A stretch of DNA of 64,000 nt, from NCBI GenBank assembly GCA_035535315.1, contig DATLQD010000133.1, positions 6,272 to 70,271 of the forward strand, read 5' to 3'. Made by a program: the position numbers and the translations under genes. How positions within the stretch are numbered: position 1 is the first letter of the stretch; the number at the start of each line of letters is the position of its first letter. Source of the stretch: Gaiellaceae bacterium (lineage in GTDB: Bacteria; Actinomycetota; Thermoleophilia; Gaiellales; Gaiellaceae). The notes under the pieces are model-generated. The model saw nothing but the letters and a program-made list of their open reading frames with translations, did no database searches and was not told the DNA's origin. Of this stretch, positions 40,166 through 63,749 are shown in pieces.

Positions 40166-42148
40166 TCAGTGCCACGGAAAGCTAATGCGTGTGAGCCTCA
40201 GTCCGTACGGAGGGTCCGTTTCGTAGATACCCGGAATCTCGACCAGCAACGGATGCCAGTGCTCGCCTGTGAGAGGAACCCGAATCGTGTCGGTTTTCGC
40301 GATCGCGAAGCGCCGCTCGCGGTGCCCGTCCAGCCAGAGTGTCGCCGTCGTCGGGCGGGGAGCAACGAAGTCGAGCGTCAGGACGCCCTGTCCCCACACC
40401 CAGAACGGTGCCTGGGGCTCGCTGGTCCGCCGGTCGATCCAGCCCCGGCAAAAGTAGGGCTCCTCGCGTGCCGGCTCGCCGAAAGGGTTCGACAGGTCGG
40501 CGCGGCCATTCGGGCCGAGGAGCGTGACGGCGCCGTCCCGGGCCACCGGGCGATATCCAGCCGCGAGCACTCCGCGCCACGCGAACCATCCGCCCGGAAC
40601 ACCGCTCCGGAAAAGCCCGCGGTGGAACAGGAGCTGCTCCACGCCGAGAGCATCGAGCCGGTTGCGGTCACCGTCGAGCCAGACGCCGCATGACACGCGC
40701 CCGAAGCGGTAATAGAAGTCGAAGGCCGCCTCCGGCGCCAGTGTCGAGTAGCCGGTTGGTTTCTCGCGCCCTGCTTGCAGCGTGTAGAGGTCGTACACCG
40801 ACCCCTCCTGCCGGCCCGGGTCGAACGTCGGCACCTCAAGAATCCGGCCGGGGGGAGAGCGGCGCGCCGCGGCGTAGGCTTCGTTGGATCGGTCGGCGGG
40901 GGTTGGCGCGAACGGCATTACCGTGAGATCGGCCGCCACGAGCAGAAAGGCGGCTACGCCGACCAAAGCTCGTCGCCTCGGCACGCGCTCGAGGAGCGCT
41001 GCGAGCGCGAAGGCCGCGAGGGCCGCGAGCGCCAGGTCCGCAATGGGCATGAACCGCCCAGGGACGCGAGCGCTTTGGAGCGGCGGCACGACCGATCGAA
41101 GCGGAGCGTAGAGCGGCAGGTTCGTTCCGAAGGCGATGAGGACGGGAACCAGCAGGGCGAGCCCGAGCAGGATTCCGAGGCCGCGGCGAGCTTGCAGGAG
41201 CACAGCCAGCCCGGCGACCGCGAGGATGAGCGTGAGCCACCCCAGATAGACGAGCTCCTCGCTCGGGGCGGTGTGGAAGCGGTTCAGGAAGTCGAGCGCC
41301 TCCGCCGAGTAGGCATCCACACTCGAGAGGGATCGCCGATCCGCGAGCCTCGAGCCTTCCACGACGGTGTAGCGGAGGGCGAGTCCGGCGGCGGCCGAGG
41401 CCACGACGCCCCCCGCTATCCACATGGCGGGCAGCGGCCGGTAGCGCACGGCAGCGTAGGCCGCGACGAAGGGGAGGACCCCGAGCGCGAGGTGGAGCTG
41501 GCCTGAGAGCGGGAACGAGACGAGCGCAACGGCCGCGAGGGCTCCCCACGCATGCGCACTCCTCCGTGTCGGTGCCGCGCGTGCCCGCTCGACGGCCAGG
41601 AGGCTGAGCGGGAGGAAGATCGCGATCCAGCCGAGGAGGTGGTCAGCACTCTGGGCGAGCCGGTAGGGGGCGATTGCGAACGCGAGCCCGCCCACGAGTG
41701 CCGGCACGAAGCCGAGATCGAGCGCGCGGAGCCAGGCGTACGCCAGAAGGCCTCCGGCGACCACCGTGGCCAGGAGCAACAGGTTCCACGCGAGCACGGG
41801 TCCGAAGACGGCTTCGAGTGGCCAGAAGGGGAGACCGAAGGGCCAGCCTCCCAGCGCGGCCTGAGGCTCCACCAGTGGCTGGAAGCTGTATGGATCGCGC
41901 CACGGAGCGTGCGAGGCCGCGAGCTGGTGGCCGAGGAGCCAGAAGCGGTAGACGACCTGACCGTGATCTCCCGGTGCCGTCTCCCCGTATCCCTCCGCCC
42001 CGCCGGCGAGGTAGGCCGATCCGAACGATGCGAGGCCGGGCCAGGCGGAGACAAGTGCCGCTGCCGAATAGAGGAGCGCTACGAGGCCGAGCGGGCCGAA
42101 GCCAGGAGCTCGTCGAAATCGGGGAGCTCGCCGACCTCGTATCGCCAT
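40166..42148 (-). CDS. Large polytopic membrane protein (660 aa) with a C-terminal soluble domain; possibly a glycosyltransferase-C-fold/YfhO-like enzyme
   Basis: About 12 hydrophobic segments over residues 20-450, then a roughly 200-aa non-membrane tail. Family assignment is a guess. The annotated start overlaps the peroxiredoxin gene by 70 nt. Confidence 0.55.
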   Translation of the reverse strand: MAIRGRRAPRFRRAPGFGPLGLVALLYSAAALVSAWPGLASFGSAYLAGGAEGYGETAPGDHGQVVYRFWLLGHQLAASHAPWRDPYSFQPLVEPQAALGGWPFGLPFWPLEAVFGPVLAWNLLLLATVVAGGLLAYAWLRALDLGFVPALVGGLAFAIAPYRLAQSADHLLGWIAIFLPLSLLAVERARAAPTRRSAHAWGALAAVALVSFPLSGQLHLALGVLPFVAAYAAVRYRPLPAMWIAGGVVASAAAGLALRYTVVEGSRLADRRSLSSVDAYSAEALDFLNRFHTAPSEELVYLGWLTLILAVAGLAVLLQARRGLGILLGLALLVPVLIAFGTNLPLYAPLRSVVPPLQSARVPGRFMPIADLALAALAAFALAALLERVPRRRALVGVAAFLLVAADLTVMPFAPTPADRSNEAYAAARRSPPGRILEVPTFDPGRQEGSVYDLYTLQAGREKPTGYSTLAPEAAFDFYYRFGRVSCGVWLDGDRNRLDALGVEQLLFHRGLFRSGVPGGWFAWRGVLAAGYRPVARDGAVTLLGPNGRADLSNPFGEPAREEPYFCRGWIDRRTSEPQAPFWVWGQGVLTLDFVAPRPTTATLWLDGHRERRFAIAKTDTIRVPLTGEHWHPLLVEIPGIYETDPPYGLRLTRISFPWH

Positions 42149-42543
42149 GCAGCGATGATCATGCCGTCTCCGTCGAGCAGGAAGGCGGATCGCTGGGCTA
42201 CGCGTTCGAGGCCTCGGTAGTTGAAGGCGTTGTCGAATGCGTCGACAGCGTGCCCGTTCCAGTCTGAGAGCAAGGGCACGTTGATGTCGAGCGCCTCGCG
42301 CCAGGCGCGGTGCGACCAGGGGCTGTCCCGCGAGATCCCGAAGACCGACGTGCCCGCCGCTTCGAATTCGGCCCGCCTGTCACGCAGGAGGACGAGCTCG
42401 TCAGTTCAGGTACTCGACCAGTCGAACAGATAGAAGAGGAGCAGCACGCGCTCCCCTTCGGCCGGAAGCTCGCGGAGCCGCACGCGCTCGTTCGGAGCGA
42501 GCCACACTTCCACGTCACGTGGGTGCTCTCCGGGGGAGATCAC
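42079..42543 (-). CDS. Selenocysteine-containing peroxiredoxin (Bcp/AhpC-TSA family), TGA = Sec at codon 46
   Basis: Single frame from GTG 42543..42541 to the stop at 42081..42079: MISPGEHPRDVEVWLAPNERVRLRELPAEGERVLLLFYLFDWSST-[TGA 42408..42406]-TDELVLLRDRRAEFEAAGTSVFGISRDSPWSHRAWREALDINVPLLSDWNGHAVDAF..RSAFLLDGDGMIIAAW. The TGA sits where the peroxidatic Cys of (T/S)xxC is expected. The protein has no Cys at all. GTGA overlap with the upstream GCS2 gene. The ORF track shows only the C-terminal 66 aa. Confidence 0.75.
42376..42402 (-). promoter_or_regulatory. Candidate SECIS region downstream of the peroxiredoxin UGA
   Basis: Two small hairpins 6-32 nt 3' of the UGA: GACGAGCUCGUC (42402..42391) and CCUG-CGUGA-CAGG (42388..42376). 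Not folded computationally. Confidence 0.3.
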
Positions 42544-43742
42544 GCGGTCACCGGTGGGCCGACCTGCTCCGTGACGTCGGCGATCTCGCTCACCACCTCG
42601 GCCAGATCGCGATTCGCATTCCAGACGCGGAGCTGACGGTCGGCGCCGTTCCCGCGCGCCAGGATCTGGCGTATCCCTTCAAGCTCGCGCTCGGATCCGA
42701 GCTCACGTGCGTGTGGCTCGATGTCGCGGAGGGTGCGGCGTACGAGCTGCGCGACCGGGACGCGGTTCCTGCGTCCGGTCGTGAGGTCCATGACGGGCGC
42801 TTCGAGACCGTAGCGCGCGGCCAGCCACTTGTTCTCGGTCACAAGGATTCGATGGTAGGACGGAAGCTCGTGGCCGGCGTCGTAGCGCTCGGAGTAGAGC
42901 TTGACGATCGCCTGGATGTAGGCGGCTAGGGCGACCGCCTCCTCGACGCGGGTGACTGCGTCCATGATCCGGACCTCGACGGTGCCGAAGCGCGGGTGGA
43001 GCCTCACGTCCCACCAGATGTGGGTGTAGTCGGCGATGCATCCCGTCTTTTCGAGCTGGCCCACCACCTCGGCGAAGTCCGCATAGTCCCGGAAGCGGGG
43101 CGGGGGCCCGGAACGGGGGAACGCGGCGAAGATCATCTGGCGGCTCGACGAGAGGCCCGTCGGCTCGCCGCGCCAGAACGGCGAGTTGCCCGAAAGAGCG
43201 AGGAGATCCGTCAAGTGAACGAGGAGTGCGCTCTGGATCTTGATCGCCTTCTCCGGGTCGTCGATCCCGACGTGAACGTGCATCCCGAAGATCAGCTCCC
43301 GCCGTGCCACGTACTGGAGCTGGTCGACGAGGTTCCGGTAGCGGTCGCGGGCGGTGATCCGCTGGCGCTCGAAGAGGCTGAAAGGATGGGTGCCGGCTGA
43401 GCCGACTCGGAGGGCTCGCGTGCGGGCGATCTCCGTCACGTGTGCCCGCAGCTTGCGGAGCTCCGCGTCGACCTCCGGGACGGTCCTGCACACGGGCGTC
43501 GCGATCTCGAGGACGGACTGCATGAGTTCGGGCGCGATCTGTGTCTCGAACTCGCTGCCTGCGGTGGCGCTCAGGATCGTGTCGACGTGCTGAACGAGAT
43601 CGAACGACTCCGTGTCGAGCAGCATGTACTCCTCCTCGACACCGAGCGTGTAGGGGTCGCTCTTGCCGAAGTTGTGGTCGAGCACGCTGCCGCCCTCGGC
43701 GAAGCTCTTACCTGTGATAGTCGCGGGATAGATCTGCTTCAC
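42540..43742 (-). CDS. Carboxylate-amine ligase, glutamate--cysteine ligase family 2 (YbdK-like)
   Basis: DPYTLGVEEEYMLLD, GMHVHVGI, FPRSGPP..., typical GCS2 blocks. Confidence 0.85.
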   Translation of the reverse strand: MKQIYPATITGKSFAEGGSVLDHNFGKSDPYTLGVEEEYMLLDTESFDLVQHVDTILSATAGSEFETQIAPELMQSVLEIATPVCRTVPEVDAELRKLRAHVTEIARTRALRVGSAGTHPFSLFERQRITARDRYRNLVDQLQYVARRELIFGMHVHVGIDDPEKAIKIQSALLVHLTDLLALSGNSPFWRGEPTGLSSSRQMIFAAFPRSGPPPRFRDYADFAEVVGQLEKTGCIADYTHIWWDVRLHPRFGTVEVRIMDAVTRVEEAVALAAYIQAIVKLYSERYDAGHELPSYHRILVTENKWLAARYGLEAPVMDLTTGRRNRVPVAQLVRRTLRDIEPHARELGSERELEGIRQILARGNGADRQLRVWNANRDLAEVVSEIADVTEQVGPPVTA

Positions 43743-46291: not shown

Positions 46292-46453
46292 GTGAGCGAT
46301 TCGAACGTGCACCGCATCGACGATTTCCTCCATGAGGAGTGGATCGACGAGTGGGCGAGCGAGGTCGTCGTTCAGGTCGAGGACTACCTCGCGAAGCACG
46401 CGGCGTTCCACGCATTTCTTGAAGACGGCTCCAGCACCGCCGGCGCGGTCTAG
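46292..46453 (+). CDS. Possible small protein (53 aa), unknown family
   Basis: GTG 46292 gives MSDSNVHRIDDFLHEEWIDEWASEVVVQVEDYLAKHAAFHAFLEDGSSTAGAV, a protein-like composition. Its stop shares a CTAG with the convergent trxA stop. Confidence 0.3.
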   Translation: MSDSNVHRIDDFLHEEWIDEWASEVVVQVEDYLAKHAAFHAFLEDGSSTAGAV

Positions 46454-46770
46454 GCCTCGACGAGACCTAGGTTCCGCTCGAGCATGCCCTTCGGCTGGGC
46501 GCCCACGGCCGCCGCGGCCGGCTTGCCCTCGCGGAAGAGGATGATCGTAGGAATGCTCATGACGCCGTAGCGCTGCGCGAGCGCAGGCTCCTCATCGATG
46601 TTCACCTTTGCGATCCGAAGCTCACCGGATCGCTCCTCGGCGATCTGATCCAAGACCGGAGCGACGGCATGGCACGGGCCACACCACTCCGCCCAAAAGT
46701 CCACCACGACCGCCTGCTCGCTCTCAAGCACCTCGGCTTCGAATGTCGTCTCTGTCACTTCAGTTGTCAT
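46450..46770 (-). CDS. trxA: Thioredoxin
   Basis: VVVDFWAEWCGPCHAVAP canonical WCGPC site; 106 aa. Confidence 0.95.
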   Translation of the reverse strand: MTTEVTETTFEAEVLESEQAVVVDFWAEWCGPCHAVAPVLDQIAEERSGELRIAKVNIDEEPALAQRYGVMSIPTIILFREGKPAAAAVGAQPKGMLERNLGLVEA

Positions 46771-58319: not shown

Positions 58320-58990
58320 CCGCAGACAAGGCACTCGCGATCCTCGCCGCCTTCACCGAGGCTCGACCGGAACTCGGTGCAACCGAGCTTGCCGGGGAGC
58401 TCGGGATGCACAAGAGCACCGTCTCGCGGCTTCTTGCAACGCTCGAAAAACGAGGTCTCGTGCGCCGAGCCGGCGACCGCTTCCTTCCGGGACCGGAGCT
58501 GGCTCGGCTCGGCTCGCTCGCCGCGCGCGGCCTCGCACTCCTCCCAACGGCCCGTGATCCGCTCGCGCGCCTTGCGGACGAGACCGGCGAGACCGTGAAC
58601 CTCGCGATCCGGGAGGGCGATCGCGTTTTGAACGTGTACCAGGTCGAGACCTCCCACTTCGTCGGAGTGAAGAACTGGACCGGCCGCACGACGCCGCTCG
58701 ACACGACCGCGAACGGCAAGGTTCTGCTCGCCTTCGGTGACGGCGGCGCCTCCGCGGAGCTCGAACGCATTCGTGGGTGCGGATATGCGACGGCCGTTGA
58801 GGAACTCGAGCCGGGCCTGAACTCAGCGGCAGCGCCGGTCTTCGATTGCACGGGCGCTTGCGTGGCCGCAGTCTCGGTTGCAGGGCCCTCCTATCGCGTC
58901 ACCGAAGGGCGGCTCGCAGATCTCGGCCTTGCGTGCGCCGCGGCCGGAAACGAGATATCTGCCGGCCTCGGACACCGGAAAGCTGCCTGA
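58313..58990 (+). CDS. IclR-family transcriptional regulator
   Basis: SADKALAILAAFTEARPELGATELAGELGMHKSTVSRLLATLEKRGLV (wHTH) plus an IclR effector domain. Start is GTG 58313 or TTG 58265; the ORF-track start at 58097 is junk. Confidence 0.85.
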   Translation: MQSADKALAILAAFTEARPELGATELAGELGMHKSTVSRLLATLEKRGLVRRAGDRFLPGPELARLGSLAARGLALLPTARDPLARLADETGETVNLAIREGDRVLNVYQVETSHFVGVKNWTGRTTPLDTTANGKVLLAFGDGGASAELERIRGCGYATAVEELEPGLNSAAAPVFDCTGACVAAVSVAGPSYRVTEGRLADLGLACAAAGNEISAGLGHRKAA

Positions 58991-60204
58991 TGGCCTGGGA
59001 GGTGCGCACGTTCGCTCCTGACGTGCTTGCGCCCGACGTGGGGCGCATCGAAGACCTGACGCGCGCCGAGCCCGCTCTCGCTGGCGTCGACGTCGCGGTC
59101 GTCGAGCCCGGGGAGCCGGTGCGGGTCACGCACGTCCTCGATGCGGTCGAGCCACGAATCCGCTCCGACGGTCGAATGGCATTTCCAAGCGAGGAGCGAG
59201 CGGGCGAGGGCGTAACGAATCGGATCAGCGACGTCGTCGTACTCTCCTGCCTCGATTTTCCCGGCGAGGAGCGTCCGCTGCACGAACAGGAGTCGATCGT
59301 CGACCTCTCGGGCCCGGCCGCCGACCTGACGCCTTTCGGCTCGATGCGAAACGTCGTCCTGACGTTCCGCCCCGGCGAGGGTGCGGGACACCAGGCCATC
59401 GACAGCGCAGTCCGGCGCGTGACACTCCGCGTGGCCGAGATCCTGGCCGAGCCGACCCTAAGCGCCGAACCGGTGCACACGCACACGTTCGCGCTCGGGC
59501 CGGCCGACGATGCGCTTCCGGCCGTCGCGGCACTCATACAGCTCTCCGACCTTGGCCAGCTTTACCAGCTCTACCTCTATGGAACCCCGGTTGGCGAGAG
59601 CGGCCTGCCCAAGCTCGTCGATCCAGCGGAGGTAATGGACGGAGCTGTCACTGCAGGGGAGTATCACTGGGCGGCAATGCGGAATCCGACGCTCTTCTTC
59701 CAGCTCAACTCGCTGGTACGAACCCTCTATCGCGAGCATGGCAAGCGCCTGCGCTTCGCGGGCGTCGTTCTCATGCGGGGGTACGAGCAGTCGGCGGACG
59801 ACAAGCAGCGCGCTGCCGATGCGGCCGCGCGAGTCGCGGTCGGGCTCGGCGTTGACGGAGTGGTGATCACGACTGACGCCGGCGGGAACAGTCACACCGA
59901 CACGATGCTCACCTGCAGAGCCTGCGAGAACGCTGGCGTGAAGACAGCGGTGATCGTCTGCGAAGAGACCGATCTGGACGCGACTGAGCCGATCCTGACC
60001 GACTGGGTCTCCGAGGCCGACTGCATCGTCTCGACCGGGAACGTCGAGCAGTTCGCACCGGCCTGGAAGCCAGAGCGCGTGCTGGGCGGCGATCACTTTC
60101 TCGACGGCACGCCGGCCGCCGAGGCGGGCCCGATCCCGGTCCGCAACTATCTGGGCGCAGCCAACCAGATGGGCCAGCTCGACCTCGGAGCGACGTCATG
60201 GTGA
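58990..60204 (+). CDS. Glycine/sarcosine/betaine reductase component B, alpha/beta-proprotein family (GrdE/GrdG/GrdI-like), lacking the central Cys
   Basis: ATG 58990 (TGATG junction with iclR). 404 aa with the family blocks as I recall them (..DPAEVMDGAV..., YREHGKRLRFAGVV, GVDGVVITTDAGGNSHTD, C.NAGVKTV.., N.LGAANQMG). No Cys between residues 88 and 308. Confidence 0.75.
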   Translation: MAWEVRTFAPDVLAPDVGRIEDLTRAEPALAGVDVAVVEPGEPVRVTHVLDAVEPRIRSDGRMAFPSEERAGEGVTNRISDVVVLSCLDFPGEERPLHEQESIVDLSGPAADLTPFGSMRNVVLTFRPGEGAGHQAIDSAVRRVTLRVAEILAEPTLSAEPVHTHTFALGPADDALPAVAALIQLSDLGQLYQLYLYGTPVGESGLPKLVDPAEVMDGAVTAGEYHWAAMRNPTLFFQLNSLVRTLYREHGKRLRFAGVVLMRGYEQSADDKQRAADAAARVAVGLGVDGVVITTDAGGNSHTDTMLTCRACENAGVKTAVIVCEETDLDATEPILTDWVSEADCIVSTGNVEQFAPAWKPERVLGGDHFLDGTPAAEAGPIPVRNYLGAANQMGQLDLGATSW

Positions 60205-61475
60205 GGGCCGTCCACTACCTGAATCAGTTCTTCGCGGGGCTCGGCGGCGAGGAGGCGGCGGGTACCGAGCCGACTCGTATCGACGGCCCGGTCGGCCCGG
60301 GCAAGGGACTTGCCGCTGCCCTCGAGGGAATCGAGATCGTCGCGACCATCGCCTGCGGCGACGATTACTTCAGCGAGCACGAGGAAGCTGCGCTCGGGCG
60401 ACTCTTCGAACTGATCGAGCGCGACCAGCCCGACCTGCTGGTCGCCGGCCCGGCGTTCGGGTCCGGGCGCTACGGCTACGCCTGCGCTCGTGTCGCGGCC
60501 GAGGCGAGCAAACGTGGGATTCCCGGGCTTGCGGCGATGCACGAAGAGAACCCAGGTGTTGCAGCAGCAGCGGGCAAGGTGCTGATCGTCCCAACGGCAG
60601 TGAATGTGGCCGGCATGCGTGACGCGCTGCCGCGGCTTGCGTCTCTCGCTAGCGCACTTGTGAGTGGCCGTGAGCTGGGTCCGCCGGAGGAAGAGGGGTA
60701 TCTCCCGCGTGGACTGCGGCGGAACAGACACCACGGAGCGACGGGAGCCGAGCGGGCTGTGGATCTCCTCCTTGCGAAGCTCGCCGGCGAGAAGCGCTCC
60801 GAGGTCGGAGGGTCGTTCGACCGGGTCGAGCCTCCGGCGCGCGTGGAAGATCTCTCGCACGCCCTCATCGCGCTCGTGACCGAAGCTGGGTGCGTTCCGC
60901 AGGGAAATCCCGATCGGCTGCCGAGTGTGCGCGCCCAGGCATGGCTTCGATATTCCCTCGCGGGCGAGAAGCGGCTCGATGCTGGTGACTACGAAAGCGT
61001 GCACGGCGGCTTCGATGTCTCCCGAGCGAACGAGGATCCGAACCGGCTCGTTCCGCTGGACACCGTGAGCGGCCTGATCGATGAAGGCCGGATCGGCCGC
61101 CTGCACGAGTTCTTCTATACGACAACCGGGAACGGCACGCCTGTTGCAACCTCGACCGAGTTCGGCCGCGAGATCGCGGGAGAGCTGCGGGATGCCGGCG
61201 TCGAAGCCGTTCTCCTCTCGGGAACTTGAGGGACGGGGACGCGCTGCGGGGCAGTGCTCGCGAAGGAGATCGAGCGGGAAGGGATACCGACGGTGTTCGT
61301 GACCTCCCTGCCGACGATCTCGACCATGATCGGCGTCAACCGAACGCTTCGCGGCCCGGCGATCACGCATCCCTTCGGTCTCGACGAGGAGGAGCGTCGC
61401 CAGATCGTCGAGCGGGCACTCGAGATGCTCGAGACAGACGTCGAGCCGACGACCGTCTGGGAGGTGGCTTCTTGA
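60198..61475 (+). CDS. grdB: Glycine/sarcosine/betaine reductase selenoprotein B family (GrdB/GrdF/GrdH-like), TGA = Sec at codon 344
   Basis: ORFs 60198..61229 and 61254..61475 are one frame, interrupted only by TGA 61227..61229. MVRAVHYLNQFFAGLGGEE..., AGPAFGSGRYGYAC, PEEEGYLPRGLR, VTEAGCVPQGNPDR, FYTTTGNGT, ..VLLSGT-U-GTGTRCGAVLAKEIEREGIP closely follows my recollection of clostridial GrdB. The symbol denotes the family; substrate type is unresolved. Confidence 0.85.
61241..61257 (+). promoter_or_regulatory. Candidate SECIS hairpin 12 nt downstream of the grdB-like UGA
   Basis: GCGCUGC-GGG-GCAGUGC: 7 bp including one G-U pair, with a G-rich apical loop. Hand-folded only. Confidence 0.35.
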
Positions 61476-61626
61476 CGACCATGGGGCTGAATTGCGTTGT
61501 TCTTGACGCGCGTGTATCTCGGGTCCCGACCCGCCCCCCTGCTCACGCGCGAGCGTACCGCTCGAAAACGCTCGAGTGGGACGCTGAATGTGCCACTGGC
61601 GTTACGAAAGTGGAGCTGCGGATCAC

Positions 61627-62958
61627 GTGAGCGGGGCCGCAATTCACGGGTGCTCGCTCGTGCTTGCGCACGCGCCCGACCTCGTGCAGCACGGGTCGAA
61701 GCCGGCGCGCGAGATCGCGGCGACGCGGGACGGCCTGCTGGACCGAATCAGCGGCGCCCTCCGCACATACGACGACGCCCTCGCCTACGCGCCCAACCAG
61801 GCCTTCGTCGGAAACCTCCGCCCCGAGGAGCTCTGGGACGTGGAGCGGCCTCGCTGGCGCCACCCGGTGAGGTCGAGCCGGGAAGGTCCATACGGCGTGA
61901 TCGTCGACGAGGATGAGCTCTACCGCCGCATGGCCGAAGCGGACGCGTTCCAGCTCTTTCGTCTGAACGGCGAGGAGGCGGGAGACGGCGCCCTGCCGCT
62001 CGCCTTGCGCGGCCGGCTCGCCGGTTCGATGCTTCGCGCCCACGAGCTCGACGAGAGTCTCTCGGCCAGCGTGCTCCTCGAGAATCTCGCCTGCAAGACG
62101 ACCGGGGCTCTCGCCCTTGAGCACCTCCTGCGCCAGATCGACTTCCCTGCCGGAGAGGTCGACTATGCGCTCGGCTGCGGTGAGGAGGCCGTCGGCGATC
62201 GCTATCAGCGGGGCGGCGGAAACCTCGGGAAGGCGATCGCGGAGCAGGCCGGATGCTCAAATGCGTCTGGCGCAGACGTCAAGGCGTTCTGCGCCGGGCC
62301 GGTCCATGCAATCGTGGTTGCCGCAGCTCTCGTCGCGGCGGGAGTCTTCAGCCACGTCGCGGTGGTGGCAGGCGGATCGCTGGCGAAGCTGGGGATGAAG
62401 TTCTCGGGCGCGTTGAAGAACGACGTCCCGGTTCTCGAGGACGTTCTAGCGGGACTCGCAATCCTGGTCGGGCCGCCGGGAGGCGGCGCGCCCGTCGTTC
62501 GACTCGACGCCGTCGGCCGCCACAGGATCGGCTCCGGCTCGGCTCAGCAAGCCGTCCTCGAGGATCTCGTCGTCGAGCCACTGAGTCGGCTCGGCCGCGG
62601 CATTCTCGATGTCGACCGCTACGCAACTGAGCTCCACGACCCGGAGATCACGGAGCCGGCCGGGGCTGGGAACGTCCCGAACCGGAACTACAAGCTGATC
62701 GGAGCGCTCGCGGTCAAACGCGGGGAGCTTCCGCGGGACGAGCTCGAGAGCTTCGAGCGCACACGCGGGCTGCCCGGATACTCTCCGACGCAGGGGCACG
62801 TCGCCTCAGCTGTCCCGTACCTCCCGCACGCGCTCACGGCGCTGCGAGCGGGTGACATCGGCTCTGCGATGCTGGTCGCGAAGGGCTCGCTGTTCCTCGG
62901 CCGCATGACCGGGCTGGCTGACGGGATGTCAATTCTGCTCGAACCCGGAAAGGAGTGA
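61627..62958 (+). CDS. grdC: Glycine reductase complex component C, beta subunit-like (GrdC), short form (443 aa)
   Basis: LVLAHAPDLVQHGS, YAPNQAFVGNLRPEEL, LLENLACKTTGALAL, YQRGGGNLGKAIAEQAGCSNASGADVKAFCAGPVHAIVVAAALVAAGVF..VVAGGSLAKLGMK, PAGAGNVPNRNYKLIGALAVKRGE, PTQGHVASAVPY, KGSLFLGRMT match GrdC as I remember it. GTG 61627 (GGAG 12 nt upstream) is preferred over ATG 61588. Confidence 0.8.
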   Translation: MSGAAIHGCSLVLAHAPDLVQHGSKPAREIAATRDGLLDRISGALRTYDDALAYAPNQAFVGNLRPEELWDVERPRWRHPVRSSREGPYGVIVDEDELYRRMAEADAFQLFRLNGEEAGDGALPLALRGRLAGSMLRAHELDESLSASVLLENLACKTTGALALEHLLRQIDFPAGEVDYALGCGEEAVGDRYQRGGGNLGKAIAEQAGCSNASGADVKAFCAGPVHAIVVAAALVAAGVFSHVAVVAGGSLAKLGMKFSGALKNDVPVLEDVLAGLAILVGPPGGGAPVVRLDAVGRHRIGSGSAQQAVLEDLVVEPLSRLGRGILDVDRYATELHDPEITEPAGAGNVPNRNYKLIGALAVKRGELPRDELESFERTRGLPGYSPTQGHVASAVPYLPHALTALRAGDIGSAMLVAKGSLFLGRMTGLADGMSILLEPGKE

Positions 62959-62961
62959 CAG

Positions 62962-63288
62962 ATGGTCGAAGCAACCCCGGAAACATTCAAGGAACTGACG
63001 CGCGAGGGAAGCGTCCTCGTTGACTTCTGGGGGCCGCGTTGCCAGCCGTGCCTGCAGATGATGCCGACCGTGGAGAAGCTCGAGGAGGACTCGGCCGGCG
63101 CCGTCAAGGTTGTGAAGGTGAACGCGAGCGAGAATCGAGATGTGTGTCGCGAGCTCCGCGTCTTCGGTCTGCCCACGTATCTTCTTCTCCGCGACGGCGA
63201 GGAGCTCGAGCGCCTGTCGGGCGAGGTGTCAAAGGAAGACATCGAGAAGGCATTTGCGACGCTTGGAAACGGAGGTGAGGCAGCATGA
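62962..63288 (+). CDS. Thioredoxin-family protein with an atypical CQPC active site (Grd-associated)
   Basis: [18 protein letters not shown] instead of WCGPC; 108 aa. GGAAAGGAG SD. ATGA overlap with grdA. Confidence 0.85.
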
Positions 63289-63749
63289 AGCTCGAGGGAA
63301 AGAAGGTGATCGCGCTGGGCGAGCGGGATGGTGTCCCGGGCCCAGCCATCGCCGACGCAGTCAGGTCGGCGGGCGCGGAGGTTGTCTTCGTCGAGACGGA
63401 GTGCTTCGTCTGAACGGCGGCAGGCGCCATGGACCCCGAGAACCAGGACCGCATCAAGAGCCTGGTCGACGAGCACGGGGCCGACGACCTGGTGGTGGTG
63501 CTCGGAGCCGCTGACCTCGAGTCCCTCGAAGTCACGGCCGAGACGGTCACCGTCGGGGACCCGGCCTACGTGGGTCCGCTGGCAGGAGTTCAGTTGGGAC
63601 TCCCCGTTGTTCACATCCTCGAAGAGGACATCAAGGAGCAGGTTGACCCTCAGGTCTACGAGGATCAGGTAGGGCTGCTCGAGATGACGCTCGACATCGA
63701 GCAGGTGCGAGTGGCCGTGAAGGGCTTCCCGGGCCGGGACCGGACTTGA
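63285..63749 (+). CDS. grdA: Glycine/sarcosine/betaine reductase complex selenoprotein A, TGA = Sec at codon 43
   Basis: Frame from ATG 63285: [42 protein letters not shown]-[TGA 63411..63413][34 protein letters not shown]...[23 protein letters not shown]. This is the hallmark GrdA sequence with the CxxU motif. The ORF track shows only the part after the TGA (63429..63749). Confidence 0.9.

Follow-up and report, generated by a model that had tools for sequence, protein, structure and literature searches.

Selenocysteine (Sec)-containing peroxiredoxins (Prx; PF00578 with a TxxU motif) are an experimentally verified selenoprotein family (PMC13188914). Twelve of their genes were counted in 2006 (PMC1794560) and 91, from 78 organisms, in 2016, in a revision that extended Sec use beyond anaerobes (PMC5029168). 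Here, a 64,000-nucleotide stretch of a Gaiellaceae bacterium (assembly GCA_035535315.1, contig DATLQD010000133.1, positions 6,272 to 70,271 of the forward strand; the whole stretch is referred to as the window) was analysed, in which a minus-strand Prx gene carries an in-frame TGA in place of the codon for the peroxidatic Cys. Profile matches, the codon column of the orthologues and a comparatively supported hairpin all favoured the reading of this TGA as Sec that had been put forward in an initial annotation of the window. The locus is very probably a genuine selenoprotein gene of an established family, from a lineage and a subfamily that were not described in the literature found; within this incomplete coverage, no report tied Gaiellales, Thermoleophilia or AhpE-type Prx to Sec.

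The founding Sec-Prx is PrxU of Eubacterium acidaminophilum, reportedly described by Sohling et al. in 2001. As in PrxU and other Sec-Prx, a predicted Sec replaces the peroxidatic Cys at the (T/S)xxU position of an AhpC/TSA fold, a putative bacterial Sec insertion sequence (SECIS) lies in the coding region just past the UGA, and glycine reductase selenoproteins co-occur. Unlike PrxU, the Gaiellales protein has 154 residues, is of Bcp/AhpE type and reads LxxxSxxU rather than PxxxTxxU; its host is a member of the Gaiellales (Thermoleophilia, Actinomycetota), a group on which the literature searched yielded no selenoprotein report. The initial annotation had named PrxU as precedent. This holds for the Sec-Prx family, which is established, but not for orthology: the NCBIfam PrxU model (NF040737), whose cut-off is 270 bits, was matched with only 36, along positions 64-170 of its 233.

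Two groups of Cys enzymes are closer in type. AhpE of M. tuberculosis (Rv2238c; structures 1xxu, 1xvw and 4x0x) likewise has ~153 residues, a single catalytic chalcogen residue, no resolving Cys and an actinobacterial host; the similarity to it was TM ~0.84 with 30% identity (Foldseek, 1xxu; TM, template modelling score) and E = 7e-11 in a search of solved sequences, all of which are measures of pairwise similarity only. Unlike the Gaiellales Prx, AhpE has Cys as its catalytic residue and retains Pro in the PxxxTxxC motif. Its reductant is mycoredoxin-1/mycothiol. Archaeal Bcp/PrxQ proteins (S. solfataricus Bcp4, 3hjp; Aeropyrum pernix Bcp, 2cx3) share size and active-site register with the Gaiellales Prx, but all use Cys. 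In A. pernix Bcp, a resolving Cys lies five residues past the peroxidatic Cys; the Gaiellales Prx has Leu51 at this position. Glutathione peroxidases (GPx), an unrelated family within the thioredoxin-fold superfamily, are a mechanistic analogue only. The single Sec of Sec-GPx passes from selenol through selenenic acid and selenenylsulfide to selenol again; the thiol comes from outside, as the protein itself has no resolving residue. A similar cycle with a single Sec and an external thiol may operate in the Gaiellales Prx.

Translation of the minus-strand frame 42543..42079 (155 codons) gave only one internal stop, TGA 42408..42406 (codon 46), ahead of the terminal TAG at 42081..42079. The list of open reading frames (ORFs) splits the gene into parts of 45 aa (42406..42543) and 66 aa (42079..42279), both in one frame, and the 154-residue protein that the initial annotation had assembled from the 45 codons and the 66-aa ORF was confirmed as a single frame. 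Its placement of the lone TGA at the active-site position agreed with both the translation and the homologue alignment. The product has S43 at -3 from the predicted Sec (U46) and R118, and its Cys count is zero, so that, as had been claimed, no Cys accompanies U46. The GTG start at 42543 lined up with the point at which full-length homologues begin (MIxVGxRxPDVxVW) and shares bases with the TGA that ends the upstream GCS2/YbdK ligase gene (GTGA). The coupling noted before was seen in this start/stop overlap, by which the two genes are probably translationally coupled.

After substitution of C for U, the protein matched Pfam AhpC-TSA (PF00578) with 79.5 bits (E = 2.6e-22, cut-off 26), residues 18-130 being aligned to profile positions 15-122 of 124, and Pfam Redoxin with 38.2 bits, in accordance with the peroxiredoxin assignment. 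NCBIfam equivalog cut-offs were missed for Bcp (NF006960, 40.7 vs 140 bits) and PrxQ (NF053650, 51.4 vs 260 bits), and no GPx hidden Markov model (HMM) of Pfam or NCBIfam was matched. The nearest solved sequences were the archaeal Bcp/PrxQ proteins 2cx3 (1.3e-17), 2ywn and 3hjp, besides AhpE. AlphaFold, supplied with 27 sequences, gave a model with a predicted local distance difference test score (pLDDT) of 90.7 and a predicted TM score (pTM) of 0.88. Its best structural match in Foldseek was Sulfolobus Bcp4 (3hjp; TM 0.90, root mean square deviation 1.7 Å); 687 PDB entries matched at E <= 0.001, and the 50 best listed were peroxiredoxins without exception. The label "Bcp-type" was fair in that the closest structures are Bcp/PrxQ and AhpE; the Prx resembles Bcp/PrxQ in fold, yet is no Bcp/PrxQ equivalog. 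Of the active-site residues, the Prx has S43 at the T/S position, U46 where the peroxidatic Cys is expected, and R118; all three are conserved. Since a resolving Cys is lacking, the enzyme would be of the 1-Cys type, and by its sequence it is a member of a small 1-Cys Bcp/AhpE-like subfamily with the motif LxxxSxxU. Some homologues carry the JGI name "mycoredoxin-dependent peroxiredoxin".

Orthologues were collected from Gaiellales genomes and soil metagenomes (163 loci). Genome hits numbered 554; from the genome scan, which used one genome per species, 80 loci were fetched, 79 of them matched by a motif regular expression; the metagenome scan was seeded with an alignment of Cys forms. At the Sec/Cys column, 154 loci read TGA and nine TGC, and no other codon occurred; such a recurrence of TGA goes far beyond chance. 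TGA was present in 77/79 genome loci (TGC in 2/79) and, despite the Cys-form seed, in 72/79 metagenome loci (TGC in 7/79); locus L063, missed by the regular expression, also read TGA on inspection. A protein search returned 3010 homologues, of which the best full-length ones (<=66% identity) all had Cys at the column. Three JGI proteins (P0018, P0019 and P0028) show W there, and the DNAs beneath them (L001-L003) read in-frame TGA; an ENA call (P0091) begins just past the column and its DNA reads TGA as well (L001-L004 all TGA). Past the TGA, the frame was open for 106-112 codons in 154/154 TGA forms and ended at a homologous position, with no frameshift or second stop. The Sec/Cys column expected from the initial annotation was thus obtained, free of a frameshift or pseudogene pattern.

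For the window and L005, the closest pair, the proportions of nonsynonymous (pN) and synonymous (pS) differences were 0.014 and 0.144 (pN/pS 0.10); the median pN/pS of saturated pairs was 0.47. Judged by substitution patterns, the downstream part of the ORF is under purifying selection. With 154/163 loci from ~80 species-level genomes and many soil metagenomes, the Prx is normally a predicted selenoprotein in soil Gaiellales, a widespread actinobacterial order. In a neighbour-joining tree of 168 sequences (one outgroup, no support values), the Cys forms fell into ~4 small clades nested within the Sec forms. Wherever DNA of a Cys form was fetched, the residues after the column read T-C-T-N-E, whereas the +2 residue of Sec forms is D, N, S or H. 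The nested clades and the T-C-T-N-E pattern suggest repeated replacement of Sec by Cys; the direction of Sec/Cys change reported for Prx in 2006 was the opposite (PMC1794560).

The source taxa of the 80 genome loci were Gaiellales, Gaiellaceae or Thermoleophilia metagenome-assembled genomes (MAGs), except for one bin labelled Candidatus Binatia. Complete Gaiellales chromosomes with the TGA form exist as well, such as OY970250.1 and OY970337.1. In the Binatia bin (L029, JBEVNX010000215.1), a Gaiellales-type cluster of YbdK, Sec-Prx and 660-aa ORF was found with ~80% protein identity to the window; it is probably a mis-binned contig rather than a gene transfer. MAG MFD03975.bin.2.148 contained two TGA-form copies (L040, CAVVAB010000006.1; L049, CAVVAB010000001.1), and hence paralogous Sec-Prx genes within one genome.

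A hairpin was found inside 42340..42410 (minus strand), the region in which the initial annotation had sought a SECIS. It starts 14 nt past the UGA and consists of a 7-bp stem and a 5-nt loop, CGUGA, whose second and third bases are G and U, at 21 nt from the UGA. The core reads C-CUCCUG, loop CGUGA, CAGGCG-G in the window; the consensus of nt +18..+36 in 143 distinct TGA forms is N-CUCCUG-CGUGA-CAGGAG-N'. The criteria for bacterial SECIS elements reportedly set by Zhang & Gladyshev (2005) are a stem-loop just past the UGA whose small apical loop contains a G (GU) and lies at a distance of 16-37 nt, and the Prx hairpin has this geometry (21 nt, CGUGA). In the same 143 forms, the third-codon positions +21, +24, +27, +30 and +33 are 98-100% fixed, which freezes the codons Leu CTC, Leu CTG, Arg CGT, Asp GAC and Arg AGG; beyond +36, third positions vary (majority base 48-94%). 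At 68% G+C, CGT and AGG are not codons expected to be favoured.

The hairpin was also predicted by RNAalifold. Its seventh (closing) pair was GC in 50, CG in 12, GU in two and UA in two members of an 81-sequence set and was unpaired in 15, giving a covariation score above all 500 shuffles and all slid controls. A compensatory change from C-G to U-A was present in the stem of L063. In the Cys forms (9/9), the LLR(D/E)R peptide is encoded by varied codons and the hairpin cannot form. The minimum free energy of the window hairpin was -15.8 kcal/mol (42400..42363). Single-sequence folding was dropped as SECIS evidence, the z-scores (given below) being insignificant in G+C-rich sequence.

As counted in the initial annotation, the Prx is the third Sec gene in the 64-kb window, next to GrdB (TGA 61227..61229) and GrdA (TGA 63411..63413), whose canonical in-frame TGAs give indirect support for Sec decoding in this genome. 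The hairpin alignment varies so little that a covariance model would amount to a sequence pattern. The pattern CTGCGKGRCAG, built from the loop variants of the Prx family, was therefore searched on both strands (128 kb) and had two matches against 0.25 expected: the Prx hairpin and, on the same strand as the gene and 15 nt past its TGA, GrdB. The GrdB hairpin (GCGCUG-CGGGG-CAGUGC, within 61227..61260) contains CTGCGGGGCAG at 61244..61254 (plus strand), after TGA 61227..61229. It lies 4 nt nearer its UGA than the Prx hairpin and has the top CUG / CG[G/U]G[A/G] / CAG in common with it. This shared top is a candidate lineage-specific recognition motif for SelB. The sequence past the GrdA TGA lacks the CUG-CG[G/U]G[A/G]-CAG motif.

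Three other explanations of the in-frame TGA were considered. Gene callers split or truncate the Prx, and a TGA inside a frame, taken alone, most often marks a dead gene, as would be expected had a nonsense mutation inactivated it. However, an identical TGA column in 154/163 loci spanning 55-95% protein identity, an ORF end that is homologous throughout without further stops or frameshifts, apparent purifying selection past the TGA and the retention of the catalytic S43 and R118 make such a pseudogene vanishingly improbable. The locus might also give two products, a 45-residue peptide ending at the UGA and a remainder that is either translated from an internal start or left untranslated, with the hairpin as a regulatory element or attenuator. 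Hairpins could in principle affect ribosome progression, and the downstream 66-aa ORF has a GTG start, but no internal start is conserved, and the first one in the window, 43 codons past the TGA, would cost helix alpha-2 and part of the fold. As the S43/U46/R118 active site is complete in neither fragment and the halves share one frame in 154/154 loci, two separate products are extremely unlikely.

The UGA might instead be read through without selenium, either because the hairpin prompts a near-cognate or suppressor tRNA to insert Trp or Cys, or because UGA is an amino-acid codon in the lineage (genetic code 4 or 25). Such decoding is highly improbable: TGA is a normal stop in the window, where it terminates ~16 frames that look gene-like by third-position G+C, including those of YbdK and GrdC-beta, whose profiles were matched to the end. 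The W placed in three orthologues by JGI pipelines would, as peroxidatic residue, make a dead enzyme, and the column alternates with Cys alone. That sel genes were not seen in the window and its 10-kb flanks would fit read-through, but these are a small part of the genome, and the window also encodes two classical obligate selenoproteins, GrdA and GrdB, each with TGA at its Sec position; the GrdB site has the hairpin top of the Prx. Because of the conserved column and frame and the use of TGA as stop, a pseudogene or a reassigned codon is excluded for practical purposes.

Several points weigh against decoding of the Prx UGA as Sec. Selenium incorporation is a prediction from sequence. SelA, SelB and SelD were not found in the window (Pfam on ~30 window ORFs, reading of the ORFs at 29.6-37.5 kb), in the 10 kb past each of its ends or in 52 related loci; this is a small part of a ~3-Mb genome, and the result is uninformative. 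The only tRNAs that ARAGORN called in the window were tRNA-Cys and tRNA-Pro; no tRNA-Sec (selC) turned up in the window, its 10-kb flanks or the 52 related loci. The stem in the window contains one internal U-C mismatch, and its lower part is longer there. Folding energy did not differ significantly from that of shuffled sequences (z = -1.75 for 91 nt and -1.19 for 43 nt, at 68% G+C), and Rfam gave no match at E <= 10 for 42300..42450; at gathering thresholds, only a tRNA was matched in the whole window. Rfam has no model that fits the bacterial SECIS of the Prx. Since folding energy alone was not significant and an Rfam match is lacking, the case for the hairpin rests on the comparative data. 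Finally, the Pro of the PxxxTxxC motif is Leu39 in the Prx (42429..42427, minus strand); Leu occupies this position in nearly all members of the subfamily, Sec and Cys forms, and the distant homologue P0103 has Pro.

With these points taken into account, the Prx is very probably a cysteine-free enzyme of the 1-Cys type ("1-Sec"), of the small Bcp/PrxQ-AhpE kind, with Sec as peroxidatic residue. According to the sequence signals, UGA codon 46 would be decoded by Sec-tRNA(Sec) delivered by SelB, which the hairpin 14 nt past the UGA would recruit. By analogy with Prx and GPx chemistry, the selenolate, placed by S43 and R118, would attack the peroxide O-O bond and be converted to a selenenic acid. 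Because the Prx has no resolving Cys, an external thiol would be needed to regenerate it through a selenenylsulfide. Candidate reductants are thioredoxin (TrxA), a redoxin or a low-molecular-weight thiol; the last is hinted at by the YbdK-type carboxylate-amine ligase gene to which the Prx is probably coupled in translation. The likely gain from Sec would be resistance to irreversible over-oxidation. A wider proposal, in which Sec is ancestral for the Gaiellales Prx subfamily with several independent Sec-to-Cys reversions and the Prx forms a dedicated module with the coupled YbdK ligase, the product of the ligase (gamma-Glu-Cys or a related small thiol) serving as its physiological reductant, is rather unlikely. 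If it were true, an abundant soil lineage would have in this Prx a functional counterpart of glutathione peroxidase that is bacterial and of Prx fold.

Public gene calls render the Gaiellales Prx as a 45-residue stub, as a C-terminal fragment or, under code 4, with a wrong W. The W calls of JGI apparently stem from genetic code 4 being picked for short contigs; by these calls, wrong peroxiredoxin sequences have entered public protein sets. No NCBIfam equivalog captures the subfamily, all cut-offs being unreached, and a dedicated HMM together with the hairpin motif would mend hundreds of annotations. The strongly conserved hairpin common to the Prx and GrdB provides a testable SelB recognition motif for the lineage. 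Cys forms of Prx are already near diffusion-limited, which raises the question of what selenium adds; the natural Sec and Cys forms of this 1-Cys Prx, which are close relatives and have no further Cys, would be a clean system for it. The Gaiellales soil lineage is probably aerobic. A soil clade that probably respires oxygen would join the users of Sec in peroxide defence, which fits the 2016 revision (PMC5029168).

Table 1. Coordinates of the Prx gene, its predicted Sec signals and neighbouring features in the window.
Feature	Position	Strand	Remarks
Peroxiredoxin CDS (coding sequence)	42079..42543	-	154 sense codons + TAG; GTG start 42543; predicted Sec codon 46
In-frame UGA (U46)	42406..42408	-	Peroxidatic (T/S)xxC position; Cys column in full-length database homologues
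SECIS-like stem-loop	42363..42400	-	Core 42391..42373, nt +18..+36 from U of UGA
YbdK-family carboxylate-amine ligase (GCS2)	42540..43742	-	Pfam GCS2 4.9e-58; NF010039 408 bits vs cut-off 371
660-aa ORF	40166..42148	-	Downstream of Prx; start uncertain
Thioredoxin TrxA (WCGPC)	46450..46770	-	Pfam Thioredoxin 9.4e-31; ~4 kb from Prx
GrdE-like	58990..60204	+	Part of compact grd cluster
GrdB	60198..61475	+	Pfam GRDB 3.8e-119; in-frame TGA 61227..61229
GrdC-beta	61588..62958	+	NF040746, 551 bits
grd-cluster thioredoxin	62962..63288	+	
GrdA	63279..63749	+	Pfam GRDA 8.6e-41; in-frame TGA 63411..63413 (ETECFV-U-TAAGAMD; CxxU)

The YbdK ligase gene lay upstream of the Prx in 53/84 loci, and a homologue of the 660-aa ORF directly 3' of it in 68/84. 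This ORF had no Pfam or NCBIfam match; its sole in-frame start, ATG 42148, would overlap the 3' end of the Prx by 70 nt. The neighbours of the Prx suggest a thiol reductant, and TrxA, 4 kb away, is a candidate. A RidA-like gene was seen further upstream of the Prx than the YbdK ligase.

The grd genes form a compact glycine/sarcosine/betaine-reductase-like cluster (58990..63749), with an IclR regulator gene ahead of it. GrdD and GrdC-alpha were not encountered in the stretch examined. In related contigs (L165-L167), the grd cluster is directly followed by a caa3-oxidase assembly gene (CtaG). Since this caa3-type oxidase assembly factor is encoded, the clade probably respires oxygen. Glycine reductase is a "Stickland" enzyme of anaerobes; here, a Stickland-type reductase cluster was observed in a probably oxygen-respiring lineage. 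GrdC-beta ends in a TGA that is in frame with the thioredoxin gene starting one codon on (…EPGKE * Q MVEAT…; 62956..62964); with the profile matched to the end, this TGA looks like a true stop.

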